A stretch of 64,000 bases of DNA from NCBI GenBank assembly GCA_963836205.1, contig CAWIIV010000008.1:65685-129684 (forward strand). The letters are read 5' to 3'. Below the pieces are notes generated by a model. The model was not told where the DNA came from. It saw only the letters and a list, made by a program, of their open reading frames with translations, and ran no database searches. Shown piece after piece: positions 9,902-56,127 of this stretch. Both the position numbers and the translations under genes were made by a program. This DNA comes from an uncultured Acidimicrobiia bacterium. GTDB lineage: Bacteria; Actinomycetota; Acidimicrobiia; Acidimicrobiales; AC-14. Each line of letters begins with the position of its first letter. The first letter of the stretch is position 1.

Positions 9902-10409
9902 GCATCTCCTTCCGCAACGTTGACGTCGACCAGAGCGCCCCCCTCGGCACCTGGCCGCCAGAAGCGATTGAGATCCTCGTCGACCGCGGCAACCTGTCGG
10001 ATTGGCGGCGGATTGCCGCCGCGCGCTGGCCGAGGACCCGTGGGGCCCGCTGGCCCGCACCGTCGAGGAGATCGTCGGGCTCGACAGCCACTACGGCGTC
10101 GACCGGCTCCTGGAGCGGGTCCTGCAGCAGGAACGTGAGCGGAAAACCCTTGCCGGTCGTCGCCGCTATGCCGAGCGACTCCGGAACCTGCGCCGGTCAG
10201 CAGGCTTGTCGATGCGCGAGCTGGCCGCCGCAGCAGGGACCTCCGCGGCGCGGATCTCCGACTACGAGAACGCACGGGTTGCACCGACCACCGACGTCCT
10301 CGCCCGGCTGGAGGGCGTGCTGGAACGCCTGAAGGCGGGCCCGAACGCGCAACCCTCGCCTCCGCAAGGCTCGCGCCGCGCCGGAGGCGGCGCGACACCA
10401 TCCGCGTGA
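9898..10409 (+). pseudogene. XRE-family (Cro/C1-type) HTH protein, frameshifted near 10018-10027
   Basis: N-terminal part MSISFRNVDVDQSAPLGTWPPEAIEILVDRGNLSDWRRIAAA (frame of 9898) continues in the 10002 frame as LAEDPWGPLARTVEEIV... The HTH reads LRNLRRSAGLSMRELAAAAGTSAARISDYENARVAPTTDVLARLEGVL. An extra 'cg' in gccgccgcgcgctgg breaks the frame. Confidence 0.55.
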
Positions 10410-10527
10410 GGCTCTCGCCCCCCGAGGTCATCCTCGCCGAGCTCTACGGCATCGAGTTCGACATGGGGGCGAGGCCAATGACGACTGCACGGGGGTCGTT
10501 CGCCCGTCGCCTCGCCGACCCGGTCGG

Positions 10528-11786: not shown

Positions 11787-11791
11787 CGGCG

Positions 11792-18970: not shown

Positions 18971-21199
18971 ATGTTGGTGCGGTTGGGACGGTTCACGGTA
19001 CGAAGGAAGCGGTCGATTCTGATCGCCTCCGTCATCCTCTTCGCCCTGGCGGGCGCCATCGGCGGTGGGGTGGCCGACCACCTCTCGTCCGGCGGGTTCG
19101 AGGACCCGGAAGCCGAATCCACTCGGGCGGGCGCGGTCATCGACGACGTGTTCCACGCCGGCGCCCCCAACGTGGTGCTCCTCGTCACCTCCGCCACCGG
19201 CACGGTCGACGACCCGGCCGCAGTCGCCGAGGGCCAGGCCCTCACGGCCGAGCTGGCGGCCGAGCCGGGCATCGACCAGGCCAGCTCCTACTGGAGCCTG
19301 GGCAACGTGCCGCCCCTGCGCAGCAACGACGGCCGCCAGGCGCTCGTCCTGGCCCGCATCGCGGGCGACGAGGACACGGTCGACGCCCGCATCGAGACCC
19401 TCTCCCCCGCCTTCACCCGCCAGACCGGCGCCCTCGACGTGAGGGTCGGCGGCCAGGCCGAGGTCTTCCGCCAGATCGGCGGCACGGTGGAGGAGGACCT
19501 GGCCAAGGCCGAGTCGGTGGCCATCCCCATCACCCTGCTCCTCCTGGTGGTGGTGTTCGGCAGCATCGTGGCTGCCGGGCTGCCGGTGGGCATCGGCGTC
19601 CTGTCGATAATAGGGACGTTCCTGGTGTTGCGGCTGCTGGCCGAGCTGACCACGGTGTCGATCTTCGCCCTCAACCTCACCACCGCCATGGGCCTCGGGC
19701 TGGCCATCGACTACAGCCTGTTCGTCGTCAGCCGCTACCGGGAGGAACTGGGCCGGGGGCTGGAGCCGGCCGCCGCCGTTGTGCGCACCGTCAACACCGC
19801 CGGGCGCACGGTGGTGTTCAGCGCGGCCACGGTGGCGGCATCCCTGGCGGCCATGCTCGTGTTCCCGATGGCCTTCCTCCGCTCCTTCGCCTACGCCGGC
19901 ATCGCGGTGGTGGCCATGGCCGCCCTCATCTCGGTGGTGGTCCTGCCCGCGGCCCTTGCCGCCATCGGCCACCGGATCGACAAGTGGTCGGTGTTCCGCC
20001 GCCACCCCAAGGCCGTCGGCGAGGGCTTCTGGCACCGGGTGGCGATGACCGTGATGCGCCGGCCGGTGGTCATCGGCGGGTCGGTGGTCGCGCTCCTGAT
20101 CGTGCTCGGGCTGCCCTTCCTCCACGTGCAGCTGGGCCTGCCCGACGACCGGGTCCTGCCCACCACCGCCTCCAGCCGCCAGGTGCAGGACGAGATCCGC
20201 ACCAACTTCACGTCCAACGACGCGGGCGCGGTGCAGGTCGTGGCCCAGGGCGCCGACGTCGCCGACCCGGCCGAGATTGCGGCCTACGCCTCCGCCCTCT
20301 CCCGGCTGGAGGGCACGGCCCGGGTCGACGCCCTCACCGGGTCGTACATGGCCGGCGCCCAGGTGGCGCCCCCGAACGAGGCATCGGTGCGGTTCGCTTC
20401 GCCCGACGGCACCTGGTTCTCGGTGGTCCCCTCGGTCGAGCCGCTGTCGGCCGACGGCGAGGCACTGGTGCACGACGTCCGCGCCCTCGACGCCCCCTTC
20501 CCGGTGGAGGTGGCCGGTCCGTCGGCCGAGTTGGTCGACTCCAAGGCGTCCATCCTGGACCGGCTGCCGCTGGCGGCCGGGATCATCGCCCTCATCACCT
20601 TCGTGGTCCTGTTCCTCATGTTCGGCAGCGTCCTGGTCCCGATCAAGGCCATCGTCCTCAACCTGCTCAGCCTGAGCGCCACCTTCGGCGCCATGGTCTG
20701 GATCTTCCAGGACGGGCACCTGGCCGGGCTCCTCAACTTCACCCCCACCGGCGACATCGCCATCTCCACCCCGATCCTGATGTTCTGCATCGCCTTCGGG
20801 CTGTCGATGGACTACGAGGTCTTCCTCCTGTCCCGGATCAAGGAGGAGCACGACCGCACCGGCGACAACCGCCAGGCGGTGGCGGTGGGCCTGGAGCGCA
20901 CTGGCCGGATCGTGACCGCGGCCGCAGCCCTGCTGGCGATCGTGTTCATCGCCATGGGGACGTCGAGCGTGTCATTCATCAAGTTGTTCGGTATCGGCCT
21001 TACGATGGCTGTACTCGTGGACGCGACCCTCATCCGAGCGGCCCTGGTGCCCGCCTTCATGCGCCTGGCGGGCGACGCCAACTGGTGGGCGCCCGCGCCC
21101 ATGCGCCGGATCTACGAGCGGTGGGGCTTCAGCGAGGCCGACGGCTACTCCGAGGCCGGGCCCGGGCTCGACGATCGCCAGCTGGAGCGGGTCCGATAG
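18971..21199 (+). CDS. mmpL: MMPL-family (RND superfamily) membrane transporter
   Basis: 742-aa ORF with two six-TM bundles and two extracytoplasmic loops. Typical MMPL strings: GLAIDYSLFVVSRYREEL and GLSMDYEVFLLSRIKEEHDRTGD. Confidence 0.9.
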   Translation: MLVRLGRFTVRRKRSILIASVILFALAGAIGGGVADHLSSGGFEDPEAESTRAGAVIDDVFHAGAPNVVLLVTSATGTVDDPAAVAEGQALTAELAAEPGIDQASSYWSLGNVPPLRSNDGRQALVLARIAGDEDTVDARIETLSPAFTRQTGALDVRVGGQAEVFRQIGGTVEEDLAKAESVAIPITLLLLVVVFGSIVAAGLPVGIGVLSIIGTFLVLRLLAELTTVSIFALNLTTAMGLGLAIDYSLFVVSRYREELGRGLEPAAAVVRTVNTAGRTVVFSAATVAASLAAMLVFPMAFLRSFAYAGIAVVAMAALISVVVLPAALAAIGHRIDKWSVFRRHPKAVGEGFWHRVAMTVMRRPVVIGGSVVALLIVLGLPFLHVQLGLPDDRVLPTTASSRQVQDEIRTNFTSNDAGAVQVVAQGADVADPAEIAAYASALSRLEGTARVDALTGSYMAGAQVAPPNEASVRFASPDGTWFSVVPSVEPLSADGEALVHDVRALDAPFPVEVAGPSAELVDSKASILDRLPLAAGIIALITFVVLFLMFGSVLVPIKAIVLNLLSLSATFGAMVWIFQDGHLAGLLNFTPTGDIAISTPILMFCIAFGLSMDYEVFLLSRIKEEHDRTGDNRQAVAVGLERTGRIVTAAAALLAIVFIAMGTSSVSFIKLFGIGLTMAVLVDATLIRAALVPAFMRLAGDANWWAPAPMRRIYERWGFSEADGYSEAGPGLDDRQLERVR

Positions 21200-35197: not shown

Positions 35198-36211
35198 TCA
35201 GAGGGTGACGGCGTTGATGGCGCTCGTCCACGGCTCCGCCTCCAGGTGGGTGAGGTCGGGGTCGGAGCCGAGGCGGCGGGCGGCGGCCACCACCAGCCGT
35301 TGGAAGGCGACGACGGCCACCAGCGGGCGGGCCAGCTCGGCCACCGACGACATCTGCAGCCCGCACGACGACCCGGTGCCGCAGTGGACGACGGTCGCCC
35401 CCACCCGACCGAGCAGCCCGGACAGGTCGTGGGTGCGGCCACCGCCGTCGCCCGCGGGCAGGATCAGGAAGGCCGAGGTCGACGGCGAGAACACCGCCGG
35501 TGTCCCGTGCAGGGCCAACTCGGTGTGCAGGCCCTCGGCCCACCGGTAGGTCCCCTCCTTGACCTTGAGGGCGGCCTCGTCGGCCGTGACCTCGTCCAAA
35601 CCCCCGCCAATGATCGCCACCACCGCGCCGTCGCGGGTGGCCGCGTCTACCGCCGCGTCTGCCATCGGCAGGGCGAGCGTCCGCGCCATCGCCGCCGGCA
35701 CCTCCCGGAGGGCGGCCGCCAGCTCGTCGGCCTCCTCGCCGAACGTGGCGCACACGAGCCGGCCCAGCACGGCCAGGGACGAGGTGTACGAGACGGTGTG
35801 GGTGCTGGCCTGCTCCTGGCGGCACGTCCGCAGGACGAGGTCGGCCGCCGGCTGGTGGGGCCCGACCCCGGTGACCGCCACCGTCGTGGCCCCTGCGTCC
35901 CGGGCGGCGGCGAGGACGGCGTTCGGGAACCGCTTGGTGCCCCGGTGGCTGACCACGACCACCTGGTCGTCGGGACGCAGCGACTCCCACAGGGCCAGGT
36001 CGTGGGCGTCGATGGCGGCGGGACGGACCCGCCCCCGGGTCACCCTCCGGACCCAGATCGCCGCCGCTCGGCAGGCGTGCAGCGACGAGCCGATGCCGGT
36101 GAAGATGAGGGGCCGCCCGGGGTCGAGGCCGTCGATCGGACCGTCCCCCAGGACGGCGGCGATCGCCGCCGGCTGCTCGCCGATGTGCTCCTCGAAGGCC
36201 GACCCGGTCAC
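35198..36211 (-). CDS. Two-SIS-domain sugar-phosphate isomerase/deaminase-like protein (GlmS C-terminal / AgaS / FrlB-like)
   Basis: FTGIGSSLHACRAA...VVVSHRGTKRF and a second SIS half (VVAIIGGGLDEVTADEAALKVKEGTY..AEG). Start placed at the GTG at 36211 to avoid overlapping the upstream gene; ATG 36256 is an alternative. Confidence 0.75.
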   Translation of the reverse strand: MTGSAFEEHIGEQPAAIAAVLGDGPIDGLDPGRPLIFTGIGSSLHACRAAAIWVRRVTRGRVRPAAIDAHDLALWESLRPDDQVVVVSHRGTKRFPNAVLAAARDAGATTVAVTGVGPHQPAADLVLRTCRQEQASTHTVSYTSSLAVLGRLVCATFGEEADELAAALREVPAAMARTLALPMADAAVDAATRDGAVVAIIGGGLDEVTADEAALKVKEGTYRWAEGLHTELALHGTPAVFSPSTSAFLILPAGDGGGRTHDLSGLLGRVGATVVHCGTGSSCGLQMSSVAELARPLVAVVAFQRLVVAAARRLGSDPDLTHLEAEPWTSAINAVTL

Positions 36212-36227
36212 CGGGCCCGGCCCTGGT

Positions 36228-37262
36228 TCAGGAGGCCCCCTTGGCCAGGAAGCCATGGCCGGCGAAGGCGTCCCTCGTGGCCGGGTCGTCGAGCGCGCCG
36301 ATCTCGGCGAAGTGGAGGACCGTCTGGGAGGCAGTGGCCGCCCACGACGGGCGCATGACGTCGTCGGCGTAGACCTCGGCCAGGACCTGCTCGGCGTCGT
36401 CGCGGCCGAGGCCGTAGCCGGCCAGCTCGAAGCGCAGGACCGTGACGTCGGGTCGGAGGAAGGCGTCGATCAGGTCCGGCACCAGGACGCCCATCTCGCG
36501 GCGAATGGCCGGCGTGAGGTTCATCCAGAGGATCCGGAGGAAGGCGGCGAAGTAGGCGTGGTGGCGGCCCTCGTCGTGGGCATGGTCGCGGACGATGTCG
36601 CGCACCGCCTCCGCGACCGACGGGTCGTCGGGCATCGAGGCCAGGGTGGCGGTGATCAGGGTCTCGGAGCACACGACGAAGAGCAGCTCCACCAGCGGCT
36701 CGAGGCCCTGGCCCACCTCGGCCTGGATCGCCCGCAACCGTTGGATGAAGTACGGCTGCCGCTCCAGCAGCGGCGTGATCCCGGAGAGGGCCCGGGCCTG
36801 GCGCAGGAGGTCGGCCGCGAAGAGGGCGTGGTAGGCCTCGTCGCAATAGATCTTGTGGGCGTCGAACGCCATCTCCTCCGGCACCTCGAACCCGACCTCG
36901 CCGTGGGCGATGCCGGCCACCGTCCGGTTGACCACCAGGTGCTCCAGCTTGGTGGTGAAGTCGAGGTAGCGGTAGAGGTGCTGGGTGAGCACCGCCTCGA
37001 AGGCGGCGGGGGGCAACGCCCGGACCAGGGGATGCGTCGCCAGGGGCACCATCTCCGGCGAGAACAGCAGGTGGCGGGCACCGTCGGTGGCGAGCATCCG
37101 CCTGGGCGCCCGGCGGACCGACGCCCTTTCGTGCCAACTGGCGAGGGGGCTGCGGTAGGCCGCCCCCGCCTCCGCCACGGCTGGCGCGGGTGCCCGCAGC
37201 GCGTCCAGCGGGCAGGTGGCGAACGCGGCGCAGCCCGAGAACAGACCTGCTATCCCGCACAT
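36228..37262 (-). CDS. AurF-like di-iron oxygenase (arylamine N-oxygenase family)
   Basis: Carboxylate/His ligand pattern: KIYCDEAYHALF, VCSETLIT and RDHAHDEGRHHAYF. Start at ATG comp. 37260-37262, a 13-nt overlap with the methyltransferase gene. Confidence 0.75.
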   Translation of the reverse strand: MCGIAGLFSGCAAFATCPLDALRAPAPAVAEAGAAYRSPLASWHERASVRRAPRRMLATDGARHLLFSPEMVPLATHPLVRALPPAAFEAVLTQHLYRYLDFTTKLEHLVVNRTVAGIAHGEVGFEVPEEMAFDAHKIYCDEAYHALFAADLLRQARALSGITPLLERQPYFIQRLRAIQAEVGQGLEPLVELLFVVCSETLITATLASMPDDPSVAEAVRDIVRDHAHDEGRHHAYFAAFLRILWMNLTPAIRREMGVLVPDLIDAFLRPDVTVLRFELAGYGLGRDDAEQVLAEVYADDVMRPSWAATASQTVLHFAEIGALDDPATRDAFAGHGFLAKGAS

Positions 37263-38233
37263 CGGTCGTCGGCCCCGTCCCCGTCCCCGTCCCCCGGTGC
37301 CGGACCCGCGACCCGCCGGCGGTAGACGCCGACGCCCTCCGAGGTCGGGTACACGCGGCGGCGGTCGTAGTGCTCCTCCAGGTGGGGCAGGAACTTGGAG
37401 AACTGGGCCCGGTTCGACCCGATGCGGCGCTCGAAGTACCCGTTGTCGGTCACGTTCTCGAGGAGCATGTTGTGGGCCAGGAGGACACCGCCGGGGCGGA
37501 CGGCCGGCGTCGCCGCCCGCATGATCGGGAAGTAGATGGCCTTGTCCCGCAGGTCGGGGTCGGGTCCGTCCTTCGGACCCTCGGCGTCGAGGACGCACAG
37601 GTCGACGTCGTGGAGGCGAGGCGCCACCTCGATGGCGTCGGCGACCACGAAGTCGGTGACGTCGGCCCATCCCATGGCCGCGAAGTTCCGTTCCGCGATG
37701 GCCATGACCGCCGGGTCGACGTCGACGAGGGTCACGGTCCCGCCGCCGGCCACGATGCCGGGCAGCGCCCAGAGGGCCCAGTAGCCGTAATAGGAACCGA
37801 GGAACGCGGTGCGTTGCGGGCGGAGGACGTGGGCCAGGGCGTACAGCAGCCGCGCCTCCTCGGGAAAGATGTAGGTGACCCGTCCGTCGTGGGCGGCGAG
37901 GGCGACGACTTGCTCGCGATAGTCGTCGAACTCGTGCTCGGGATAGGCGGCTGACGGGATGATCTCGGCGGCCACCAGATCGTCGAGGAGACCAGCGACG
38001 CACTGCCGATCGTCGAGCGGAAACCGGGTGGACAGGTTGCGCTGGTCCTCGTTCAGGATGCCGCCCACCAGGGCTTTTCCGTCGGCGGCCATCCACGCGC
38101 TGTAGTCGTCACGGGTGAGTTTCGCCGCCCGGAAATCCCGGTACTGGGGGATTTCGGCGAGGACCATTTCGATCAGGCCGAAGACGGGACCGCCCGCGGC
38201 GTACACATGTTCCGACGACCGAAGTTTCTGCAA
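37250..38233 (-). CDS. Class I SAM-dependent O-methyltransferase (family 3-like) with an N-terminal extension
   Basis: SAM-binding region FLGSYYGYWALWALPGIVAGGGTVTLVDVDPAVMAIAERNF...DLCVLDAEGP...LRPGGVLLAHN. Confidence 0.75.
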   Translation of the reverse strand: MQKLRSSEHVYAAGGPVFGLIEMVLAEIPQYRDFRAAKLTRDDYSAWMAADGKALVGGILNEDQRNLSTRFPLDDRQCVAGLLDDLVAAEIIPSAAYPEHEFDDYREQVVALAAHDGRVTYIFPEEARLLYALAHVLRPQRTAFLGSYYGYWALWALPGIVAGGGTVTLVDVDPAVMAIAERNFAAMGWADVTDFVVADAIEVAPRLHDVDLCVLDAEGPKDGPDPDLRDKAIYFPIMRAATPAVRPGGVLLAHNMLLENVTDNGYFERRIGSNRAQFSKFLPHLEEHYDRRRVYPTSEGVGVYRRRVAGPAPGDGDGDGADDRCAG

Positions 38234-38290
38234 TCCGAGCCCCGCGCGCTCCAGAGATGAACTGTCCCGACGCCGAACGCTATCACCCCC

Positions 38291-45588: not shown

Positions 45589-45883
45589 CCGGTCGGCGAC
45601 CATGCCGCGACATGCCGAGGCGAAGTGGGTCTGGCGGCGGAGGCCGCGCTTCTCCGGGAGGCTGCGAAGTCTCCATGACTCAAGGCCAACCTCGATCCGG
45701 GGTCGGCTTTGTGAAGCAAAACGACCGTGGATGTCGCTTTTGCTCCAGAGAATGGGGCCGCGAGGGAGGTCCTCGAGTTCAAAGGCGATCCACCCACGGA
45801 ATGGGACGGCTTCCCGGACGCGCCCGTGACCCGGGACCGAGATGGCCCGGGTCGCGCACGCCCCCTCGAGCATCGGCGGCCGG

Positions 45884-46588
45884 TTACGCCGACCGCCTTC
45901 CCCGCCCGCCGACGGTGGCCCACACGAAGCCGACCATGGCCAGCAGGGCCATCGCTCCGGCGCCGGCGTAAGCGGCGGTGGCGGCCTGGGCCCCCTTCTC
46001 GCCCAGGGTGCTGAACCCGAAGGAGGTGAGCAGGGTCCCCCGCAGCATCTCGGCCTTGAAGACGGCCTCCCGCTGGCCGGTGACGGCACCCAACTGCTTC
46101 TGGAGGTCGGCCAGGGCCGGATCGCCGCTGGCCTGGGCCGCGGCCAGCTTGGCCTGGAGGTCGAGCTGGACCTCGCCGATCTCGGCGTAGGTCTGGCCCT
46201 TGCCGATCTGCTTCACGTGGAGACCGAGGTAGTCGTTGGCGAAGCACTCCGCCTGCTTGCCGGTGGTGAGGGCCTGGCCGGCGTTGGCCACCACGCACGG
46301 CGCCTGGCGCTCGGCGTCGGTGAGGGCGGCGACGGGCTTGAAGGTGATCCGCTGCTGCGTGAGCTGGTCGGTCACGTAGTTCTCGGAGAAGTTGGCGTTA
46401 CTGGCCATCACCATGCCCATGGCCCCCAGCAGGCCGGCTACGGCGAGGGCGCCAAGGCTGATCCACAACAGGATTCGGCGGGGCCGCCGCCCGTGGTGGC
46501 GGTGGTCAGCGTGGTCACGGCTGGAGACGGCGAACGAGGTGAAGCTGGCCTCAGTCGGGGTCGGGGTCGGGGTCAGGGTTGCGGTCAT
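45884..46588 (-). CDS. Hypothetical membrane-anchored protein (N- and C-terminal TM segments)
   Basis: Start at ATG comp. 46586-88 behind GAGAGGAA. MTATLTPTPTPTEAS..., TM segments ILLWISLGALAVAGLLGAMGMVMA and GAGAMALLAMVGFVWATV. I recognise no family. Confidence 0.55.
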   Translation of the reverse strand: MTATLTPTPTPTEASFTSFAVSSRDHADHRHHGRRPRRILLWISLGALAVAGLLGAMGMVMASNANFSENYVTDQLTQQRITFKPVAALTDAERQAPCVVANAGQALTTGKQAECFANDYLGLHVKQIGKGQTYAEIGEVQLDLQAKLAAAQASGDPALADLQKQLGAVTGQREAVFKAEMLRGTLLTSFGFSTLGEKGAQAATAAYAGAGAMALLAMVGFVWATVGGRGRRSA

Positions 46589-46787
46589 CGTCGGATTCCT
46601 CTCTGGAAGGTGAAACGGGCTGGTCGTCGGCCGTCCCGAGCGGAAGGAGGAGGACGTGGAAGAGCTCGGCTCCGGTGCGAAACGTCGTCTCGACGCCGGT
46701 CGCCACGTGGCGGACCACACCCCGAAGGTCGGGCCGGCACGGCCGGTCGTCGGCCGGCGTCCAGACCCGCACCAGGAACGTCTGCAT
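46551..46787 (-). CDS. Small hypothetical protein (78 aa) downstream of the large regulator
   Basis: Strong GGAGG RBS 5-6 nt upstream of the ATG (comp. 46785-87): MQTFLVRVWTPADDRPCRPDLRGVVRHVATGVETTFRTGAELFHVLL. Its 3' end overlaps the next gene by 38 nt, so the C-terminus is doubtful. Confidence 0.4.
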   Translation of the reverse strand: MQTFLVRVWTPADDRPCRPDLRGVVRHVATGVETTFRTGAELFHVLLLPLGTADDQPVSPSREESDDDRNPDPDPDPD

Positions 46788-46846
46788 CTCCACCTCCCAT
46801 CCATCCACCGCTTCGGTCACTGCCAGGAGCAGCATCCGACCCTGCC

Positions 46847-46879
46847 TTCGGGTGGGCTTCGGGTGGGGTTCGGGTGGGC
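46847..46879. repeat. Three tandem 11-nt repeats TTCGGGTGGG(C/G) with six G3-4 tracts (G-quadruplex-capable on the + strand)
   Basis: Read directly. It lies immediately 3' of the regulator stop codon (46882-84) and upstream of the small ORF. Confidence 0.85.
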
Positions 46880-46881
46880 CT

Positions 46882-49800
46882 CTAGCGGGAGGACCGGCGG
46901 GGGCCGGCGTCGGGGAAGGCGGCCGGCTCCACGCCGATGTCGGCCATGCGGTCGCAGTAGGTGCGGTACATGCGGCGGGCCTCCCCGTGGCGGCCGGCAC
47001 CCCGCAACGCGGCGACCAGTTGGAGGTGGGCCCGCTCGTCGTAGGCGTCCCGGGCCAGCACGCGCAGCAGGTAGCGGCCGGCCCCGTCGTGGTCGCCGGC
47101 GGCCAGGGTGAGGTCGGCCAGGGCCATGGCGACGGAGAGGTAGGTGGTACGGGCCTCTTCCCGGAGGATGGTGGACCAGTCGGCGTAGAGGTCCTCCTCC
47201 AGGAACTCCCCGGCGTAGGCGGCCTCGGCCTGCGCCAGCAGGACGGCGGCCCCGGGGTTGCCGGCCGCCGACGCCCGCAGCCCGTCCCGCGCGTCGGCGA
47301 GGAACGCCTCCACATCGACCGTGACGTTGTCCAGCCGGATCCAGGCCGCGTTGCGGTCGTTGGCCACGAAGTGCTCGGCCTCGAAGCGCTTGTCCGGGTC
47401 GAGGACGGACCGGAGCGTGGAGAGGGTCACCGACAGCTTCGACCCCGCTTTGGACGGGTCCTCGTCCTCCCACAGGAGATCGATGAGGACATCTCGGGGA
47501 ACGGGGCGGCCCCGGCGGGCGACCAGGATCTTGAGCAGGTCGCGAGCCTTGCGGGACTGCCACTCGACGGTGGCGATCGGCGTCCCGCTCCGTTCGACGC
47601 CGAAGCCGCCCAGGACCCGGACGGCTAGCACCGGGCGGGCGGCGTGGGCCAGGTCGGCCTGGACCCGGGCCGCCTCGCCGGCCAGGGTGCGGGCCCCGAG
47701 CCGGCCCAGCTCCCGTTCGGCCTCGGCCGCCGCCGCCTGCGCCCCCGGGCAGCCGATGGTGGCCCGGGCCAGGAGCACCCGGGCCTCCCCCAGGGGGCTG
47801 CCGATGGAAGCCCACAGGGCGGCCGCCTCGTCGAGCAGGGGCGCCGCCGTGCGGGGATCGCCGTCGAGCCGGGCCTGGAGCTCGAGGGCGTCGGCCAGCG
47901 CCGGTCGGTCGTAGCGGGCGCGGGCGGCGGCACTCGCCTCCTCGGCCCGGGCCCCGGCGATGGTCCGCTCCCCCATCCGCAGGGCCGCCTCGGCCGCGGC
48001 CAGGAGGGCGTCGGGCCGGGCGAGCGACGGCACCGCCAAGGCCCGGGCGGTGAGGCGCTCGGCCTCCTCACAGTCGATGTCGGCCACGGTCAGGGCCAGG
48101 CCGGCCAGCGCTGGGACCAGGCCCTGGTGGTCGCCCGACGCGTCCGAGATCGAAATGGCCTCCTCGTAGTAGGTGCGGGCCAGGGTCAGGTGGCCCTGCA
48201 GGCGGTGGACGGTGCCCAGGTCGGCAAGGGGGTAGCTGGCCATGCGCGAGCCCCGGGCCTCGTAGTCGGCCTTGGCCGCCTCCAGCTCCCGCGCCGCCTC
48301 GTCCAGCCGGCCGAGGCCGAGCAGGGCGTGGCCCCGGTTGGCGAGGGCCACCGCCCGGAGCATCCCGATGCCGGCCAGGTCGGCCAACCGGACGGCCTCG
48401 TCCAGCTCCACTAAGGCCTCCCGGTACGAGCCCTCGTTGAGGAACCGCGAGCCGCGGTTGTTGCGGATGCGGACGATCTGGAAGTGGTCGTGGGCGGCCT
48501 CGGCATGGGTCAGGGCCCGCTGGTAGTGACGCATGGCGGTGCGGTCGCCGACCAGGGCCGCGGCCATGCCCCGGGCGGTGCAGGCCATGGCCCAGGCCCG
48601 GTCGTCGCCGCTCCGCCCGGCGGCGGCCTCGGACTCGGCAGTCAGTCGGTGGCAGCGCTCGACGTCGCCCAGCAGCCAGGCGACGGTGGCCGCCCAGGCG
48701 AGGACCATGGCCCGCAGGGCGTCGTCGCCGGGAGCGGCCAGCGCCCGCTGGTAGAAGTCCATGGCGACGTCGAGCTCACCGCGGAAGTGGTGGACGAGGC
48801 CCGCCACCAGGCCCGCCGACATCGACAGCGGGCCCGCGTCCGCCCCGACGCACGGCCCGAGCAGGGCGTGGGCGCCGTCGAAGTCGCCCCGGATGAGCCG
48901 GGCGACGGCCTCACCGCACGCCTGCGCCGGTTCCTCGCGGTCGGCGGCGGCCAGGAGGCCGGTGAAGGGCCGATCCTCCCCCCGCCCCTCCAGCCAGGCC
49001 GCGGCCCGCCGCACCATGACCGCGCCGTCGTCCGCCACCACCGCCAGGTGGGCCTGCACGAAGCGGCGGAGCAGGGGCGGGACGACGAACCAACCGTCGT
49101 GGTCGCCATTGCGGTCAGGGACGATCCAGAGCCCGTCCCGGGCCACCCGCCGGACCAGGTCGTCGGCGTCGGGACCGAGGATCCTGGCCACCTGGGGCGG
49201 GGTGAAGCGCTCCAGGGGGACGACGGCGCGCAGCAGGTCGACCACCGCGCCGGACGTGCCCGGGAGGACCTCCTCCACCAGGAACGCCTCCAGCGGTGTG
49301 CCGGCGTCGGCCGCCTGCGCCACCATGGCCGCCCACCGGTCGGACGGGGCGTCCTGCAGCCAGTCGGCCACGATGCGCACCCCCGCCGGCCACCCGCCGG
49401 TGGCGTCGTGCACGGCCGCGGCCACGTCGGCGGCCCCGAGCACGGACACCATCAGGGCCGCCGTCTCCGCCTCCGTGTACCGCAGCCCCGCACCGGTGAT
49501 GTCGAGCACCTGGCCCTGGCTGCGCAGGCGGGAGACCCCGAACGGCGGATCGGTGCGGGAGGCGAGCACGAGGTGGAGGCGGGCGGGGCCACTGCGGACG
49601 AGGTCGGCCAGGAGCTGGGCCGTACCCTCGGCCCCGGCCAGGTGGTGGACGTCGTCGACCACCAGGGTGAGGTCGTCGACGACACGCTGGGTGAGCACCG
49701 CGACCAGCGCGTCGGCCGCCAACGACCCCTGGCCGGAGGCGGGGACGGCCAGCCCTCCGCCGGTGATGGTGGCCGGCCCGGTCGTGACCACCTCGGCCGG

Positions 49801-50070
49801 GTCCAGGCCCGGCACGCACACCCGGACCGCCTCGAGCAGCCCCCGAGCCAACACCGCCGGGTCCCGGTCGGCGGCACCGACGGTGAACCAGGCGCGGCAC
49901 CGGTCACCCGTCCACCCGGCCAGCAAGGTGGTCTTGCCGAGGCCGGCGGCGGCCGTGACCAGGGTGAGCCGGCGGTGGTCGGCCTCGCCGAGACGGTCCA
50001 GCAGCCGGCTCCGGGGCACGAGGGCCGGCCGGTAGCCCGGCACGGTCACCTCGTCATGCGGCCCCGGCAC
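46882..50070 (-). CDS. Large STAND-type regulator: N-terminal P-loop NTPase, central TPR-like repeats, C-terminal SARP-type wHTH plus BTAD
   Basis: Walker A: LVTAAAGLGKTTLLAGW. Long helical-repeat middle region. C-terminus: VLGGFGVERSGTPIATVEWQSRKARDLLKILVARRGRPVPRDVLIDLLW...(BTAD) YDERAHLQLVAALRGAGRHGEARRMYRTYCDRMADIGVEP. Confidence 0.8.
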   Translation of the reverse strand: MPGPHDEVTVPGYRPALVPRSRLLDRLGEADHRRLTLVTAAAGLGKTTLLAGWTGDRCRAWFTVGAADRDPAVLARGLLEAVRVCVPGLDPAEVVTTGPATITGGGLAVPASGQGSLAADALVAVLTQRVVDDLTLVVDDVHHLAGAEGTAQLLADLVRSGPARLHLVLASRTDPPFGVSRLRSQGQVLDITGAGLRYTEAETAALMVSVLGAADVAAAVHDATGGWPAGVRIVADWLQDAPSDRWAAMVAQAADAGTPLEAFLVEEVLPGTSGAVVDLLRAVVPLERFTPPQVARILGPDADDLVRRVARDGLWIVPDRNGDHDGWFVVPPLLRRFVQAHLAVVADDGAVMVRRAAAWLEGRGEDRPFTGLLAAADREEPAQACGEAVARLIRGDFDGAHALLGPCVGADAGPLSMSAGLVAGLVHHFRGELDVAMDFYQRALAAPGDDALRAMVLAWAATVAWLLGDVERCHRLTAESEAAAGRSGDDRAWAMACTARGMAAALVGDRTAMRHYQRALTHAEAAHDHFQIVRIRNNRGSRFLNEGSYREALVELDEAVRLADLAGIGMLRAVALANRGHALLGLGRLDEAARELEAAKADYEARGSRMASYPLADLGTVHRLQGHLTLARTYYEEAISISDASGDHQGLVPALAGLALTVADIDCEEAERLTARALAVPSLARPDALLAAAEAALRMGERTIAGARAEEASAAARARYDRPALADALELQARLDGDPRTAAPLLDEAAALWASIGSPLGEARVLLARATIGCPGAQAAAAEAERELGRLGARTLAGEAARVQADLAHAARPVLAVRVLGGFGVERSGTPIATVEWQSRKARDLLKILVARRGRPVPRDVLIDLLWEDEDPSKAGSKLSVTLSTLRSVLDPDKRFEAEHFVANDRNAAWIRLDNVTVDVEAFLADARDGLRASAAGNPGAAVLLAQAEAAYAGEFLEEDLYADWSTILREEARTTYLSVAMALADLTLAAGDHDGAGRYLLRVLARDAYDERAHLQLVAALRGAGRHGEARRMYRTYCDRMADIGVEPAAFPDAGPRRSSR

Positions 50071-50138
50071 GTCCTCTCCCCCCTAGCCTTCTCCCTGATG
50101 AGCCGCGCCCACCGCCGTCTGATACGAGCGACGGCCTG

Positions 50139-51253
50139 ATGCTCACGTGGGCCCAGGTCGGCGCCTGGCGGATGGGCCGCCACCACCTGGTCGAGCGGGC
50201 ACCCCGCGCCGACCTCCTCGACGTGGTCTCCGACGTCTGCGGCCTCCACGCCCAGCTCTTGTCGTCGGCCGAGCTCACCGCCTGGGCCCGGGTCGCCGAC
50301 CTCGAGCCCGACGCCGTCGCCACCGCCTTGGCCGACGACCGCACCCTGGTGAAGTCGTGGGCCATGCGGGGGACGCTCCACCTCCTGCGCTCGTCGGAGT
50401 ACGGGCTCTGGCTGGGCGGGCTGAGCACCTTCCGCCACTACCTCAAGCCGTCGTGGTCGAAGGGGTTCGGGATCTCCCAGGACGAGCTCAAGCGGATGAT
50501 CGCGGCCGTGGCCGAGGTGCTCGACGGCCGCACCCTCACCCGGGACGAGCTGGCCGCCGAGGTGGCCCGCATCACCCGCTCCCCCGGCCTGGCCGAGAAA
50601 CTGCTCGGGAGCTGGGGGTCGACGCTCAAGCCGGCGACGTACCAGGGCCAGTTGTGCTTCGGGCCGGTCCGGGGCCGCAACGTCACCTTCGTCCGTCCCG
50701 ACCAGTGGCTGGAGGACCTCACGGTCGGCGCCGGCCGACGAGGCCATGGCCACCATCACCCGGCGCTTCCTGGCTGCCAACGGCCCTGCCACCAGGGAAG
50801 ATTACGCCCGGTGGTTCGCCATCACACCGGCGGCGGCCGGCAAGAACATCGCCGGTCTGGGCGACGAGGTGACCGAGGTCGACGTCGACGGCACGCCGAT
50901 GTGGATGCTGGCGGCCGACGTCGAACCCGCTCGCCGGACCAAGCCCCCCCACGTCGTCCGCCTCCTCCCCGCCTTCGACCAGCTCGTGGTCGCCTCCACC
51001 CGCCACGCCGACAACCTCCTGCCCGGACCCCGCCTGCGGGCCCGCGTCGTACCGCCCCCAGGGCTGGCTGTCGCCGGTGGTCCTCGTCGACGGCCGGATG
51101 GCCGGCGTCTGGAAGCACGAGCGCAAGGGGTCACGCCTCACGGTCACGATCGAGCCCTTCACCAAGCTCCCCAAGTGGGCCGTCAAGGCGGCCGAGTCCG
51201 AAGCGGAGGCGTTGGCGAACTTCCTCGGGGCCGAGCTGCAGATCGTCTGGTGA
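50139..51253 (+). pseudogene. Winged-helix YcaQ/AlkZ-like (HTH_42) protein with two frameshifts (~50730, ~51047)
   Basis: Three frames join into one family-typical protein: MLTWAQVGAWRMGRHHL...GLHAQ...LVKSWAMRGTLHLL...FVRPDQWLEDL | ADEAMATITRRFLAANGPATREDYARWF...LLPAFDQLVV | YRPQGWLSPVVLVDGRMAGVWKHERKG...AELQIVW*. Confidence 0.7.
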
Positions 51254-51321
51254 CGCAACCTTCCGCGCCGTCGGCGGCGTCTACAGGGAAATGGGTGGCG
51301 ATTCGGCCATCCCCGACCGAG

Positions 51322-52596
51322 ATGAGGAGCACGGCTGTGATCTGGCAACGGCGAACGGTGGGCGGGACGAGCCTGGCGACGGTGGCGATCACCGTTTTGG
51401 CGGCCTGCGGTGGCAGTTCGGGGACGCCCACATCCACGACGGCACCCCCCCGCACCGACCCCACCGGTTCAACCACTTCCACCTCGTCGGCCGTCGACGC
51501 CCCGAACACCACGTCCCTCACACAACCGGCGCCGGTCTGGCGCCCCCTGCTGGAGGCGCCGATCGCCGGTCGAATCGGTGCGGGCGTGGTCTGGACGGGA
51601 CGGGAGATGCTCGTGTGGGGCGGCCTTCCCCGACCGGCAGATCCCGACGCGCTGATGGAAAGGGTGGGCGACGGCGCCGCCTACGACCCGGCCACCCGGT
51701 CCTGGCGGACGCTCGCCCCGCCGCCTCCCGGCGTGCTCGGCATCGCCGACGAGGGCGCGGTGTGGACCGGTGACGAGGCCGTGTTCTGGACGGGGAACAT
51801 GCCCGACGGTCCCGCCAGCGGCGCCGTCTACAACCCCGGGAACGACACCTGGCGGCCTCTGCCCGACGGTCCACTCACGATTCGCGAGGGATACACCTCG
51901 GTGTGGACCGGCTCGGAGATGGTCATCCTGGGCGGCCACGGGGGCAAGAACTTCTCCGACCCGGTCGCCGCCGCCGTCGATCCCCGCACCGGCGCCTGGC
52001 GACTCCTGCCCGGTCTCAAGGACCTCGTCGGCCTCCTCCCCCACCAGGCCTTCTGGGACGGCCGCGAGGTCCTGGTCTCGGGATCACTGGCACTGTGCCC
52101 GGAGGAGGGCGGGGGATGCAGCGGGAGCCGGCCCATCTTCGTCGCCTACGACCCGAAGACCGACGTCCGCCGCGAGATCGACCTGGCCGGGACGCGCTTC
52201 GAGGATCCGAACCCCCCGCGCCCGATCGGCTGGACCGGCACCGAGCTGCTGTTCGCGGCGTACGACGAGCCGTCGCTCGCCATCCTCGGCTACGCCCCCG
52301 CGACGGGAACGTGGCGGACCGGTGCGTCCACCAGGTGCACGCCCTCGGACTCGGGCTATGCCCAAAGCGCGTGGCTGGGCGATCGCTTCCTCGGGACCTG
52401 CGGCGACGAGTTGCTCCTGTACGACGTGGCCGACGACACCTGGGACGTCGTCGACACCGACTCGTCGCCCTTGGGCACCCACTACAGCAGTGCCATCGCC
52501 TGGACGGGAACCGAGCTGATCGTGTGGAGCGGCGGGATCGAGGCCCCCTACAACCCCACGCCGAACGAGGGCGCCACCATCACCTTGGCGACGTGA
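51322..52596 (+). CDS. Lipoprotein with about 7 Kelch/beta-propeller-like repeats
   Basis: Signal and lipobox: TSLATVAITVLAAC. Recurrent blade motif: VVWTGREMLVWGG, AVWTGDEAVFWTG, SVWTGSEMVILGG, IGWTGTELLFAAY, IAWTGTELIVWSGG. Confidence 0.75.
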   Translation: MRSTAVIWQRRTVGGTSLATVAITVLAACGGSSGTPTSTTAPPRTDPTGSTTSTSSAVDAPNTTSLTQPAPVWRPLLEAPIAGRIGAGVVWTGREMLVWGGLPRPADPDALMERVGDGAAYDPATRSWRTLAPPPPGVLGIADEGAVWTGDEAVFWTGNMPDGPASGAVYNPGNDTWRPLPDGPLTIREGYTSVWTGSEMVILGGHGGKNFSDPVAAAVDPRTGAWRLLPGLKDLVGLLPHQAFWDGREVLVSGSLALCPEEGGGCSGSRPIFVAYDPKTDVRREIDLAGTRFEDPNPPRPIGWTGTELLFAAYDEPSLAILGYAPATGTWRTGASTRCTPSDSGYAQSAWLGDRFLGTCGDELLLYDVADDTWDVVDTDSSPLGTHYSSAIAWTGTELIVWSGGIEAPYNPTPNEGATITLAT

Positions 52597-52669
52597 CCGT
52601 GCTTCAGACCCAGGTTGTCGGAGAGAGTCACATGCCGTGGCAGGCTCCATCGTCCCTCAAATCTGCTAC

Positions 52670-53878
52670 TTATCCATTTTGAGGGTTGCCCTCGTCAGCA
52701 CCATTGGCACCTCTCGATGTGCTCAATTCGTCGTGCCACCCAAGCACGAGTGCGTTTGCCTCAATTACAAGACGGTCTGCCTCTTCGTAGGCCTTGCCCA
52801 TCTGGCGCATGGTACGGCTTGTGTGATAATAGCCTTTCGCAAAGTCTTGCATCAGAACATCGCCTCTACGACGTTGCTCGCTATTAATGCGGATATTATC
52901 TAAGGCCTCCCCTATTGCTGTCGCTAAACTTTCGACCAGGAATGAAGAATCCGGATGATTGAGAGCAATGCGCGAAACTGCCGTGACTAACGGATTTAGC
53001 TCTACGCTCTTGGCCAGGTAGATCCGGCCCAATTGAACGGACCGCTCAGCCAAAGGCAACTCCTCTGCTGCAAAACGCTGAAGCTCTACGAATCGAGCGC
53101 TTGCCGGGGCACCCGATTGGTTCAGCTTGCGGAGCCGATCGTGATGGACGCGATATGTCGCCTGGTGCTGAGCGTGGACTGTCTGGCTAGCTCGTACTGC
53201 TTCCAGCCAATCCGGTATGAGAGTGTCAATTCGCTCGATCAGCGAGGTGAGATCGGCTCTCTCTCCACCCCGCTTCTCCGCTAGGGACTCGGTCGCGATC
53301 TGGTGTCTTGTGACCGTCGACGCAATCTCTACGAGTCGTTTGGCAAGAATGTTCAACCCCGCTCGGTACTCAGCGGCAGCGGGTCCAGCGAGCCGCAACT
53401 CCCTCCAGTCTGAATACTGCATACGGGCCACGAGTGCAATCGCCTCGTCCTGGTTATCGGATGCGAAGCCAGGGATGTCACTGTAGAGGATAGGTAGGAC
53501 GAGGTCTCCCACGCCGAGACTCTGTGCCTGGCCGACGAACGAAATAAGTTCGCGGCGACACTCGGAGCGCTTGAAGTATCGCGGCGTAATGATGGGAATA
53601 AAGAACGTTGTTTGCACGAGGGCATTGTCAATTCGGCGCTGCCACTCGTCCCCCCATGACAAGTTGGTTCGATCGACGAATAGAATCATCGACTCACCGG
53701 TCAAGAGCGAAAATTCTGCGCGCAAACGGGCGGCAAGCTCAACAATTCCGCCAGCGTCAGCCTCGTTGTCCTCGTGGGCGTAACTCCAGAAACCGGCCGC
53801 AGCACTGTCCTCCACGCAATGAACGGTACTCGCAGTCGGGCGAGAGGTTCGATGACGATGAGCCCGACAGAATGCCAA
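52670..53878 (-). CDS. TIR-domain protein with a ~230-aa helical C-terminal domain of unknown family
   Basis: N-terminus: FWSYAHEDNEADAGGIVELAARLRAEFSLLTGESMILFVDRTNLSWGDEWQRRIDNALVQTTFFIPIITPRYFKRSECRRELISF, which fits the bacterial TIR_2 pattern. The gene lies in a visibly lower-G+C block (~50% against ~67% in the flanks). The GTG at 53815 is an alternative start. Confidence 0.8.
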   Translation of the reverse strand: MAFCRAHRHRTSRPTASTVHCVEDSAAAGFWSYAHEDNEADAGGIVELAARLRAEFSLLTGESMILFVDRTNLSWGDEWQRRIDNALVQTTFFIPIITPRYFKRSECRRELISFVGQAQSLGVGDLVLPILYSDIPGFASDNQDEAIALVARMQYSDWRELRLAGPAAAEYRAGLNILAKRLVEIASTVTRHQIATESLAEKRGGERADLTSLIERIDTLIPDWLEAVRASQTVHAQHQATYRVHHDRLRKLNQSGAPASARFVELQRFAAEELPLAERSVQLGRIYLAKSVELNPLVTAVSRIALNHPDSSFLVESLATAIGEALDNIRINSEQRRRGDVLMQDFAKGYYHTSRTMRQMGKAYEEADRLVIEANALVLGWHDELSTSRGANGADEGNPQNG

Positions 53879-54005
53879 CTGTGCGATGGCCTCCCAGCAC
53901 GATCACGATCGCCCTCGCAGCTTGAGCCGGTTCGGGCGTCTGGTATCAGCGGCGGCGTGGCGCCGGCGCGGTCTCGATGAGGTATATCGCTGCCTCAATT
54001 CGACC

Positions 54006-55719
54006 GACGAATGAGGGACCCGTCGAGGACGCCCTGCTGGGCTGCTGCACCCGGATCCGCCCTAGGACGCCGCTGATCTAATCGGCCGACCATCCACCAC
54101 CGGCCGACTCCGGCACCCGAGACTTGGTCATGGGGATCGGGGCTGCGGTCAAGCAGGGCCAGTTCGAGGACTCGGCGGTGGTGCTGGGCGAGCGGTTGGC
54201 CCCGGGTTCGATCTATCGGCTGCTGGCCGACGAGGGCCACGTCCTTTTCCCGGACACCTACTTCGCCGACCTGTTCAAGGACACCCCCCGGGGACGTCCC
54301 AGCATCCCCGCCCGCACGGTGGCCACGGTGATGCTGCTGCAGAGCTTCGAAGGCCTGTCTGATCGGGAGGCGTGCGACCACCTTGTCTTTGACTTGCGTT
54401 GGCAGGCGGCGGCGGGCCTGACGACCAGGGCCGAGTCGTTCCACCCCACGGTGCTGGTGGGCATGCGCAACCGTCTGCGGCGCTCCGATCGTCGCTATCG
54501 CCTCCACGAGGACACCCTCGTCCCGGCCCGGGCCGCGGGGGTGCTCAAGGACCGGGCCCGGGTGCTGGACTCGACCGCCCTCTACGACTCGGTGGCCACC
54601 CAGGACACCGTGACCCAGCTGCGCTCTGCCATCCGCAAGGTGCTCTCGGTCGTCGGTCCCCTGGCTGTGCTCGTGCGGGCGGCCCTGGCTCGTGACGACG
54701 ACTACGCCTCGATCGGCAAGCCGCCCTGTGACTGGGACGACGCCGCCGCCCGCGAAGCCCTGGTCGATGCCCTGGTCAAAGACGCCTTGGCCGCCCTGGC
54801 CGTGCTCGACGGCCACAGCCTGGAGGGGCCAGCAGCCGAGGCGGCGGCGCTGCTGGCCCGGGTGGCGGGACAGGACGTGGCCGAGGGCGACGACGGGGTG
54901 TTCCGCATCGTGCGGGGCACGGCCGCCGACCGCATCATCTCCACCGTCGACCCCGAGGCCCGCCACGGCCACAAGAGCCGCAGCCGCCACATCGACGGCT
55001 ACAAGACCCACCTGTCCGTCGACCCCGACTCCGAGATCATCGCCGCCGCCACCGTCACCCCGGCCAACACCGCGGACCGGGACGCCGTCGAGGAGCTGCT
55101 GGAGGAGCCGGGACCCGATGCGCAGGCGAGCACCGACCCCGGCTCCAAGCCGGCAGTGGTGGGCGACTCGGCCTACGCCGATGGGGCCACGCTCGCCGCC
55201 CTGGCCGAGGCTGGGCGGGAGGTCCTGTCCAAGGTCCCCCCCGCCCGCAACATGACCGGAGGCTTCTCCAAGGACCGCTTCGCCATCGACCTCGACAGCC
55301 GCACTGTCACCTGCCCCGCGGGCCAGATCGTGCCCATTGTCCTGGGCCTGCGCGGTGGCCGGGCCAGCTTCGGCCCCCACTGCGGGGACTGTCCTCTGCG
55401 GGCCGATTGCACCGCCTCGGCCAAGGGCCGCTCGATCACCATCCACCGCCACGAGGACGCCCTCCAGCGGGCCAAGGCGGCCCAGCGCAGCGAGGAGTGG
55501 AAGGCCCGCTACCGGGCCGACCGCCCGATCGTGGAGCGCAGGATCTCCCACTTCACCCGCCGGGCCTGGGGCGGGCGCAAGGCCCGCACCCGGGGCGTGG
55601 ATCGCATCCGCATCGATGTCGCCACCCGGGCCGGCGTCTTGAACTGGGCCCGCCTCGCCGTTCTCGGGCTGCGCTCGACGCCGACCGGCTGGGCCGTCGC
55701 CTGATCCGGACGAATGAGG
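54006..55719. mobile_element. IS element (IS5/IS1182-type), approximate limits
   Basis: A single DDE transposase ORF is bracketed by a direct repeat: CCGACGAATGAGG (54004-54016) and CCGGACGAATGAGG (55706-55719). I could not identify terminal inverted repeats with confidence. Confidence 0.5.
54124..55704 (+). CDS. DDE transposase, IS5/IS1182-type
   Basis: N-terminal InsH/DUF772-like region: PSIPARTVATVMLLQSFEGLSDREACDHLVFDLRWQ. DDE region: VLDSTAL...STVDPEARHGHKS...GYKTHLSVD...VVGDSAYA. Cys-rich tail: TCPAGQ...FGPHCGDCPLRADCT. Confidence 0.85.
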   Translation: MVMGIGAAVKQGQFEDSAVVLGERLAPGSIYRLLADEGHVLFPDTYFADLFKDTPRGRPSIPARTVATVMLLQSFEGLSDREACDHLVFDLRWQAAAGLTTRAESFHPTVLVGMRNRLRRSDRRYRLHEDTLVPARAAGVLKDRARVLDSTALYDSVATQDTVTQLRSAIRKVLSVVGPLAVLVRAALARDDDYASIGKPPCDWDDAAAREALVDALVKDALAALAVLDGHSLEGPAAEAAALLARVAGQDVAEGDDGVFRIVRGTAADRIISTVDPEARHGHKSRSRHIDGYKTHLSVDPDSEIIAAATVTPANTADRDAVEELLEEPGPDAQASTDPGSKPAVVGDSAYADGATLAALAEAGREVLSKVPPARNMTGGFSKDRFAIDLDSRTVTCPAGQIVPIVLGLRGGRASFGPHCGDCPLRADCTASAKGRSITIHRHEDALQRAKAAQRSEEWKARYRADRPIVERRISHFTRRAWGGRKARTRGVDRIRIDVATRAGVLNWARLAVLGLRSTPTGWAVA

Positions 55720-55955
55720 CTCCTATCGGGCACCGGAGAGCCCCGAACCGCCCCTGTGGCGCTCCCCGGTGCCTCCAGCGACGACGGTGACCGCAGGTTG
55801 TCCTCGAGAGGACATCCCCCGCTTCCACCGCAGCCGCCCTCCGTGGAAGCCCGTCGGACGCCCGACGGGTCTTTAGAACAGCACCCTCCTAGATCGCGAC
55901 TGAGTTCGCCGACCGTGCACCGGCACGTTGCGAACCACCCATCGATCGCGGACTC

Positions 55956-55981
55956 GGGTGGCTGCCTACGGGCAGCCACCC
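55956..55981. terminator. 11-bp perfect hairpin GGGTGGCTGCC-TACG-GGCAGCCACCC
   Basis: Read from the sequence. It lies about 150 nt downstream of the cysH stop on the - strand, between cysH and the IS. Confidence 0.45.
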
Positions 55982-56127
55982 CAGCCGACAGGACGGTGTG
56001 GGCGGACGGTGGGGCACAGCCACAGTGTTCAGGGGCGCTGCTCGCTTGGGGATCGAGGGGCGGCACTCGTGGGTGATTGCGCCGCAGCCGCCGCCGCCGC
56101 CGGGCGGTCGCCGCCGCCCGCCCGAGC

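Follow-up and report, generated by a model that had tools for sequence, protein, structure and literature searches.

A horizontally acquired stand-alone TIR protein with an unrecognised helical tail, a candidate for single-gene phage defence in Actinomycetota

The window analysed here, a 64,000-nucleotide stretch of contig CAWIIV010000008.1 from an uncultured Acidimicrobiia bacterium, carries on its reverse strand a gene for a TIR (Toll/interleukin-1 receptor) domain followed by a long, all-helical C-terminal region. We found that this gene was acquired horizontally and that it belongs to a compact (~380-aa) family that is widespread in Actinomycetota and clearly mobile, with a confidently modelled, sensor-like tail, and we regard it as a credible candidate for a phage-defence system made of a single gene. 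Few stand-alone bacterial TIR proteins have a known trigger, SpbK being the worked example, and the most extensive survey of TIR immunity in bacteria deliberately left stand-alone TIR proteins out. To our knowledge, experimental validation in actinobacteria exists for few defence systems, and the family would add a defence candidate for these organisms, Mycobacterium and Nocardia among them. The gene and its parts are as follows.

52670..53815 (-), coding sequence for the TIR plus helical-tail protein, 381 aa from GTG 53815; the longest open reading frame (ORF) is 52670..53878(-), 402 aa from a TTG
53384..53800 (-), TIR domain, aa 27 to 165, placed by Pfam TIR_2, an AlphaFold2 (AF2) model and Foldseek
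53549..53551 (-), codon of Glu110, the predicted catalytic glutamate (motif ECRREL), checked in the translation
52688..53383 (-), C-terminal all-helical domain, aa 166 to 397, from AF2 models

A TIR domain with a glutamate at the predicted catalytic position

The ORF at 52670..53878(-) is intact and full length and keeps all of the residues that are invariant in the family. Because homologues (35 were compared) begin ~8 residues ahead of the GFWSY motif, the true start is probably the in-frame GTG at 53815, which translates to VEDSAAAGFWSY and would give the 381-aa product; residue numbers throughout are nevertheless those of the 402-aa translation from TTG 53878. The protein is acidic, and no signal peptide and no transmembrane (TM) or hydrophobic segment was found in its sequence.

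The original prediction, made from the letters of the sequence, had described a TIR-like module with a Glu where NADase TIR domains carry their catalytic residue, and had named profile and structure searches as the check on that fold. Both kinds of search placed the domain. Pfam TIR_2 (PF13676) matched aa 31 to 159 at E = 2.8e-10, its 41.2 bits exceeding the cut-off of 28, and the motifs that had been quoted (FWSYAHED, LFVDR..WGDEW..RID and FFIPIITPRYF..ECRREL) are present in the ORF. An AF2 model of the full protein built on 36 family members (mean predicted local distance difference test score [pLDDT], 87.6) contained the beta-alpha core of a TIR domain, with strands at 27 to 32, 64 to 68 and 90 to 97, helices between them and pLDDT values mostly above 90. 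When this model was compared with the PDB by Foldseek, it matched SARM1 (9ugj), TLR10 (2j67), SNC1 (5h3c), flax L7 (7vu8), MyD88 and the TIR-APAZ protein of SPARTA, all at a probability of 1.0 and with target template modelling (TM) scores of 0.5 to 0.63, the whole-protein E-values being only 7e-3 to 0.1.

Glu110 is invariant among the 36 family sequences. In alignments of the family profile with PDB sequences, the family consensus krpeCrrEL lined up with skqWpaREL of BtpA/TcpB, kknWteyEL of AbTir (7uxr) and skWCLmEL of flax L7, so that Glu110 was paired with the Glu of each, which we take from published work to be the catalytic residues. Because the consensus aligns in this way with three known TIR domains, Glu110 occupies the predicted catalytic position, and the strong purifying conservation of the TIR core, Glu110 included, over 36 diverse members argues for a catalytic function. 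Among proteins of solved structure, BtpA/TcpB and AbTir were also the closest in sequence (4lzp, 4c7m and 4lqc at E ~7e-5; 7uxr at E = 0.01), in alignments that span the BB-loop region and the catalytic Glu, and there is no homology outside the TIR domain. Both are stand-alone TIR proteins with helical regions, the helical part lying N-terminal to the TIR domain.

A fast-evolving helical tail found behind this TIR domain

The region following the TIR domain had been described as all-helical and as matching nothing recognisable, and this description stood. AF2 placed helices at 169 to 202, 210 to 254, 259 to 307, 309 to 337 and 355 to 397, and the tail modelled alone reached a pLDDT of 89.7 and a predicted TM score of 0.76. 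A Pfam scan of 19 tails returned no family, just scattered noise from single members; the tail profile had no significant match among PDB sequences, the best being a HAUS coiled coil at E = 0.035; Foldseek searches of the PDB with the full and the tail-only models found no relative of the tail, the matches being 14-3-3 proteins, designed bundles and the MxA stalk at TM scores of 0.41 or less; and a search of the tail against the BFVD viral models gave no match. As modelled, the tail is therefore a helical bundle of ~230 residues that has no recognised relative in Pfam, the PDB or BFVD.

An exhaustive HMMER search with a tail profile across 1.84 billion cluster representatives retrieved 360 proteins, in which the tail stood almost exclusively behind this TIR domain; in the full-length matches it occupied approximately residues 145 to 370. 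Other N-terminal domains on the tail were considered and rejected, since the shorter matches were N-terminally truncated gene calls starting MPILYV. (A word-indexed search with the same profile gave 7 matches only, an artefact of candidate selection, and the exhaustive search was used instead.) The sole real variant of the architecture was one NUDIX-TIR-tail fusion, which links the family to ADP-ribose and nucleotide-diphosphate chemistry. This fusion (protein P0256, 566 aa) lies at 1950-3650 of L083, a 4.7-kb metagenome contig, where it adjoins a gene for a PIN-domain protein.

Mean identity within the family is 61% in the TIR part versus 32% in the tail, so that the tail evolves faster than the TIR domain. 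A conserved catalytic head joined to a swappable, fast-evolving tail is how a recognition module attached to an immune effector would be expected to look.

The family and its sister TIR proteins

A word-indexed search with the protein found 229 matching proteins. The best 120 of these were mostly 365 to 410 aa long and 37 to 62% identical, with coverage mostly ~90%, and all were annotated with TIR_2 only. In reference genomes, full-length members came nearly all from Actinomycetota, including Pseudonocardiales, Micromonospora, Actinosynnema, Kribbella, Nocardioides, Nocardia, Mycobacterium, Microbacterium, Thermoleophilia and Solirubrobacterales.

The same TIR subtype occurs with different tails in other phyla, where, in the loci that we examined, the family hidden Markov model matched the TIR part only (E ~1e-29 to 1e-48). 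The tails of these sister TIR proteins include a right-handed beta-helix (6 loci, with Methanothrix and SAR202 among the hosts), an FGE-sulfatase domain, a WD40 propeller and a Ser/Thr kinase with or without RodZ_C. The loci with beta-helix/NosD, FGE-sulfatase, WD40 or kinase tails are L039, L041, L042, L045, L046, L048, L053, L063, L065 and L067, and sister TIR proteins were seen in Chloroflexota, Frankia, Rhodothermales, Acidobacteriota, Methanothrix, Roseiarcus and Sphingomonadales.

With metagenome loci added, the set of loci compared comprised 79 unique family genes, of which 7 (~9%) were frameshifted or disrupted by an insertion sequence (IS). The frameshifted copies are in L117/L119, L130, L134, L150 and L163. 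In L052, from a Solirubrobacterales metagenome-assembled genome, the family gene (9977-12789) is split by an inserted ORF of 446 aa, possibly a transposase, that leaves its halves ~0.9 kb apart.

The gene is a foreign cassette within an accessory block

An abrupt change of base composition, an adjoining transposase and horizontal acquisition had all been proposed for this locus, and our analysis bore each of them out. G+C content falls to 0.52 to 0.60 over ~52600-54000 from ~0.72 in both flanks; the TIR gene itself has a G+C content of 0.558 against 0.715 for the whole window, and its region is the lowest-G+C 1-kb bin of the 64 kb. The features around it are the following.

53816..54020 (no strand), short region upstream of the TIR gene, delimited by sequence and composition, extending to roughly where the low-G+C cassette ends and the IS begins
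54124..55704 (+), IS1182-family DDE transposase gene, 526 aa (NCBIfam NF033551, Pfam), with a host-like G+C content of 0.725
51322..52596 (+), Kelch-repeat lipoprotein gene (Pfam Kelch matches; signal peptide and lipobox LAAC in the translation)
51260..56060 (no strand), accessory block of ~4.9 kb (lipoprotein, TIR and IS1182), from blastn of the close-relative contig L169 and an alignment of the junction

Judged from homologues, the host is an Acidimicrobiia-like actinobacterium. We compared the window by blastn with L169, a contig from a close relative whose sulfite reductase shows 97% protein identity and whose sirA-cysH region shows 92.6% nucleotide identity. Homology runs over window positions 58595-56109 (92.6% nucleotide identity) and resumes at 51234-50145. 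The accessory block sits between an AlkZ-like gene and cysH, where L169 has only ~100 bp. Thus the block is accessory, the TIR cassette sits in a variable spot, and the low G+C content together with the absence of the block from a close relative shows that the TIR gene is foreign and was acquired horizontally. Within the 4.9-kb block it forms a monocistronic, low-G+C cassette of 1.4 kb. The lipoprotein gene, which had been called a core gene convergent with the TIR gene, is indeed convergent with it, the gap from the TIR stop codon being only 73 bp, but it cannot be called core, because, like the TIR gene and the IS, it does not occur at the syntenic site of L169.

The transposase scored 300.2 bits against a cut-off of 270 with NF033551 and also matched DDE_Tnp_1, DDE_Tnp_1_6 and DUF772. 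A simple scan found no terminal inverted repeats for the IS1182 element, and we found no plasmid match for it. An exact 11-bp direct repeat, GACGAATGAGG, at 54006-54016 and 55709-55719 brackets the transposase ORF; we did not call it a target duplication, as the sequences just inside the repeats have no inverted-repeat relation.

Absence of a constant partner gene, and genomic context

The gene had also been proposed to act without a partner, and for the window this agrees with what we found: the 64 kb contain no ThsA-, pAgo-, SAVED-, STING- or SLATT/DUF4231-like gene. Nor was any neighbour shared in an all-versus-all comparison of ORFs within 8 kb at 23 genome loci. Among the 79 unique family genes, at least 1 kb of downstream sequence was available for 59 and at least 1 kb of upstream sequence for 52; a SLATT/DUF4231 neighbour occurred in 4 loci, 75 had none, and no other neighbour gene recurred. 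There was likewise no pAgo or cyclase among the neighbours. An apparent neighbour cluster of 7 loci was rejected when it proved to consist of the TIR halves of frameshifted genes. Three of the four linked loci are from Nocardia (L018, L032 and L034), with a DUF4231 gene that immediately follows the family gene on the same strand, at a distance of -4 to +60 bp, in what appear to be operons, and the fourth is from Kribbella (L008), with a SLATT_3+SLATT_1 gene 500 bp upstream. A single gene is thus the rule, not the law, for the family.

Two-transmembrane (2TM) DUF4231 genes also lie immediately upstream of sister TIR genes that lack the helical tail, at L048 2179-2895, L054 150-536, L148 5414-5863 and L153 118-567. 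L048 and L054 are from Methanothrix, and a beta-helix tail was confirmed for L048 only. These may be undescribed TIR+2TM pairs, archaea included.

The G+C content of the family gene was below that of the flanking sequence in 25 of 26 loci (mean difference, -0.105). Its contexts included an integrative element with an integrase, an HTH_17 excisionase-like gene and RepSA; a Saccharothrix island with an integrase and a D5_N primase; an island with IS481, PemK, a Zn-ribbon recombinase, an M78 peptidase, CAP12-PCTIR_TIR, TIR-PALP and RHS; a neighbourhood with a transposase, HNH and DUF4062; and a region with a serine recombinase, an nSTAND-TPR protein, a Mu-like transposase and integrases. The link of the family to mobile and defence contexts, drawn from ~35 sampled contexts, is suggestive. 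At L086, a DUF4062 protein (6888-7955, reverse strand) is encoded 1.7 kb from a family member, beside an HNH_2 gene; a 2026 preprint assigns to the DUF4062 domain, there given the name NIR, an NADase role in bacterial immunity.

Relation to known TIR systems

The closest precedent is SpbK, carried by ICEBs1 of Bacillus subtilis, a single-gene abortive-infection defence protein composed of a four-helix bundle and a TIR NADase that becomes active when clustered on the phage portal (PMC12847820). The original prediction had held that a self-contained TIR plus coiled-coil sensor would be an undescribed layout; with SpbK as a validated precedent, and with BtpA and AbTir also combining a stand-alone TIR domain and helical regions, that claim was overstated. 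The two are alike in joining a helical bundle and a TIR domain in one polypeptide, in having no partner gene and in being carried by mobile elements. They differ in that the bundle of SpbK is N-terminal (aa 1-94) and its TIR domain C-terminal, an order reversed in the present family, whose tail is longer (~230 aa), with much longer helices, and whose members are actinobacterial. The novelty lies in this family and its tail, whose order relative to the TIR domain is the opposite of that in SpbK, and not in the layout in principle. In the scheme proposed for SpbK, docking of the helical domain onto a phage protein brings the TIR domains together into active sites that cleave NAD+ (PMC12847820), and the architecture described here would fit the same modular combination of effector and sensor. 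No SpbK chain appeared among the PDB sequence matches (E <= 1), the profile matches (E <= 0.1) or the top 50 Foldseek matches, the presence of SpbK in the PDB set being unconfirmed.

Among profiles, the best matches for the TIR part were FxsC_Nterm (NF040588), aligned over positions 4-181 of its 182, and the PADLOC candidate PDC-S66 (E = 8e-9), which matched the TIR domain only (aa 30-132, aligned with positions 152-242 of a 282-position profile); the helical tail lies outside both models. We rejected membership in FxsC, the score of 46.1 bits being far below the cut-off of 130. Membership in SPARTA, CBASS or a retron-TIR system was rejected for want of a partner or fused domain, and the Foldseek matches to SPARTA cover the TIR domain alone, over ~160 to 185 aligned columns. 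A secreted toxin was rejected as well, there being no signal peptide and no immunity gene. PHROGs gave weak matches to the TIR domain only.

A different kind of precedent is type VII Thoeris, in which operons of the TIR protein ThsB and the SLATT effector ThsH have been validated, with cyclic ADP-ribose (cADPR) as the signal, in a study that discarded stand-alone TIR proteins (bioRxiv 10.64898/2025.12.03.692087). The four family loci with a SLATT-clan 2TM gene beside the TIR gene, three of them apparent operons, resemble this arrangement, whereas more than 90% of the family loci, the window included, have no SLATT-clan gene. Of the Thoeris models, only NCBIfam Thoeris_type3_ThcB4 was matched, with a score of 11.5 bits where the cut-off is 220; no ThsB model is listed by PADLOC.

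Proposed mechanism and competing explanations

We put the chance somewhat above even that the gene encodes a horizontally acquired, stand-alone immune-type TIR protein that works as follows, the mechanism being inferred by analogy with SpbK, SARM1, TIR-STING/SAVED and SPARTA. In a resting cell, the protein would be inactive. On infection, the C-terminal bundle would recognise a cue, most likely a phage protein, or drive self-assembly, or both, and assembly would juxtapose TIR domains to form composite active sites. These would convert NAD+ to nicotinamide and ADP-ribose or a cyclic ADP-ribose isomer, and the loss of NAD+ would arrest the infected cell (abortive infection). In the minority of loci with a DUF4231/SLATT 2TM gene, the product may also signal to a membrane effector.

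Several observations weigh against this explanation. The residue four positions before Glu110 is Glu106, conserved in at least 90% of the family, whereas BtpA, AbTir and L7 have Trp there; SARM1 likewise has a Trp four residues before its catalytic Glu. Activity or product could consequently differ from those of known NADase TIR domains, and given this substitution NADase chemistry should not be assumed for the family. A role of the tail as sensor, oligomeriser or autoinhibitor is pure inference. Although a PADLOC scan of the locus, proposed along with the original prediction, did yield the TIR-only match to PDC-S66, no PADLOC model spans the whole protein and nothing was matched among its neighbours in the window. 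Homologue neighbourhoods, which were to be scored for association with defence islands, are often integrative elements or defence/toxin islands, but 3 of 10 annotated long contexts are purely metabolic, and the pooled neighbours include rpoB/rpoC and DXP synthase. Among 2.9 million viral contigs there was one match only, in IMG/VR (L168), where the member lies 8 kb from a phage minor-capsid gene. Finally, the IS lies ~120 to 300 bp upstream of the TIR start codon, and a consensus scan found no sigma-70-like promoter in 53816..54020, the sole sigma-70-like match in the scanned interval falling within the coding sequence; with the IS so close upstream and no promoter-like site in the remaining stretch, expression of the window copy is uncertain. 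(One gene of L168, at 1788-2930 on the reverse strand, encodes a phage minor capsid protein 2 domain fused to a CdiA_C toxin domain.)

These last points bear on a further explanation, that the window copy is non-enzymatic or non-functional, its TIR domain serving as an interaction module or the gene having been silenced by loss of its promoter to the IS1182 insertion. The Trp-to-Glu change, the position of the IS and the disruption of ~9% of family copies are all in keeping with this, but the ORF runs uninterrupted over its full length and has lost none of the residues invariant in the family, the TIR core including Glu110 is conserved over 36 diverse members, and the scan considered the sigma-70 consensus only, which actinobacterial promoters fit poorly. 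We rate this as the least probable of the explanations discussed here. We think it improbable, too, that the protein is a Thoeris-like producer of a signal for a separate effector such as a SLATT/DUF4231 protein (an analogue of ThsB), the window copy being an orphan whose effector is elsewhere or lost. The DUF4231 genes downstream in L018, L032 and L034, the SLATT_3+SLATT_1 gene upstream in L008, the DUF4231 genes that precede sister TIR genes with different tails (L048, L054, L148 and L153) and the precedent of validated TIR+SLATT operons that signal through cADPR (bioRxiv 10.64898/2025.12.03.692087) all point towards such a system, and members of the DUF4231-linked subset may indeed signal in this way. 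Such a neighbour is present, however, in just 4 of the 79 loci, though 52 to 59 of them have enough flanking sequence to reveal one; the 64-kb window has no SLATT/DUF4231 gene; the TIR stop codon is followed after 73 bp by the convergent lipoprotein gene; and the ThcB4 score is far under its cut-off.

It is also rather unlikely, if the strongest of these three alternatives, that the protein is a TIR NADase or scaffold which actinobacteria use not against viruses but in some other conflict or in their physiology, be it for programmed cell death, dormancy, kin discrimination, toxicity between bacteria or the upkeep of NAD+ levels under stress. The modules joined to the sister TIR domains (kinase, WD40, FGE-sulfatase, beta-helix) are of a type usual in signalling and cell-death-type proteins of multicellular bacteria; there are several metabolic contexts, and Micromonospora has a faint WXG100-like neighbour. 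Set against this, there is no conserved immunity or secretion partner and no signal peptide or TM segment, and the patchy distribution, low G+C content, mobile carriage and frequent pseudogenisation fit defence cargo better. An immune-type TIR protein acting alone is thus the explanation that we prefer.

A bolder combination of these ideas would make the tail a new domain for infection sensing or assembly and the family a switch-point, most members being lone NAD+-depleting executioners and a Nocardia/Kribbella subset acting as signal generators for recruited pore-type effectors of the DUF4231/SLATT kind, with the Trp-to-Glu change perhaps specifying an unusual product. Taken jointly, these propositions are unlikely, if slightly less so than any of the three alternatives above. 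The family would allow one to ask whether the same enzyme can act as executioner or as signal generator, and its natural domain-swap relatives and two-gene DUF4231 variants would offer a way to ask how a fused sensor switches a TIR domain on.

Other features of the window

The AlkZ-like DNA glycosylase gene that borders the accessory block (window 50139-51260, forward strand) is divided between two frames, with Pfam positions 1-161 in the ORF beginning at 50139 and 175-277 in the ORF beginning at 50746. The same split is present in L169 (12573-13690), as two genes for 229 and 143 aa that overlap by 4 nucleotides; either a frameshift or pseudogene has been conserved or the gene truly consists of two parts.

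A second accessory segment of ~4.5 kb (window 45591-50145) is absent from L169 and carries a gene at 46882..50070(-) for a 1,062-aa protein composed of an AAA_22 ATPase (with a weak match to nSTAND5), TPR repeats, a winged helix-turn-helix domain (Trans_reg_C) and a BTAD domain. It is a SARP-like regulator whose DNA-binding module lies C-terminally, and PADLOC gave it a weak TPR match only. A further variable region, window 29267-38290 (~9 kb), has no counterpart in L169, where positions 20964-20991 bridge the gap.

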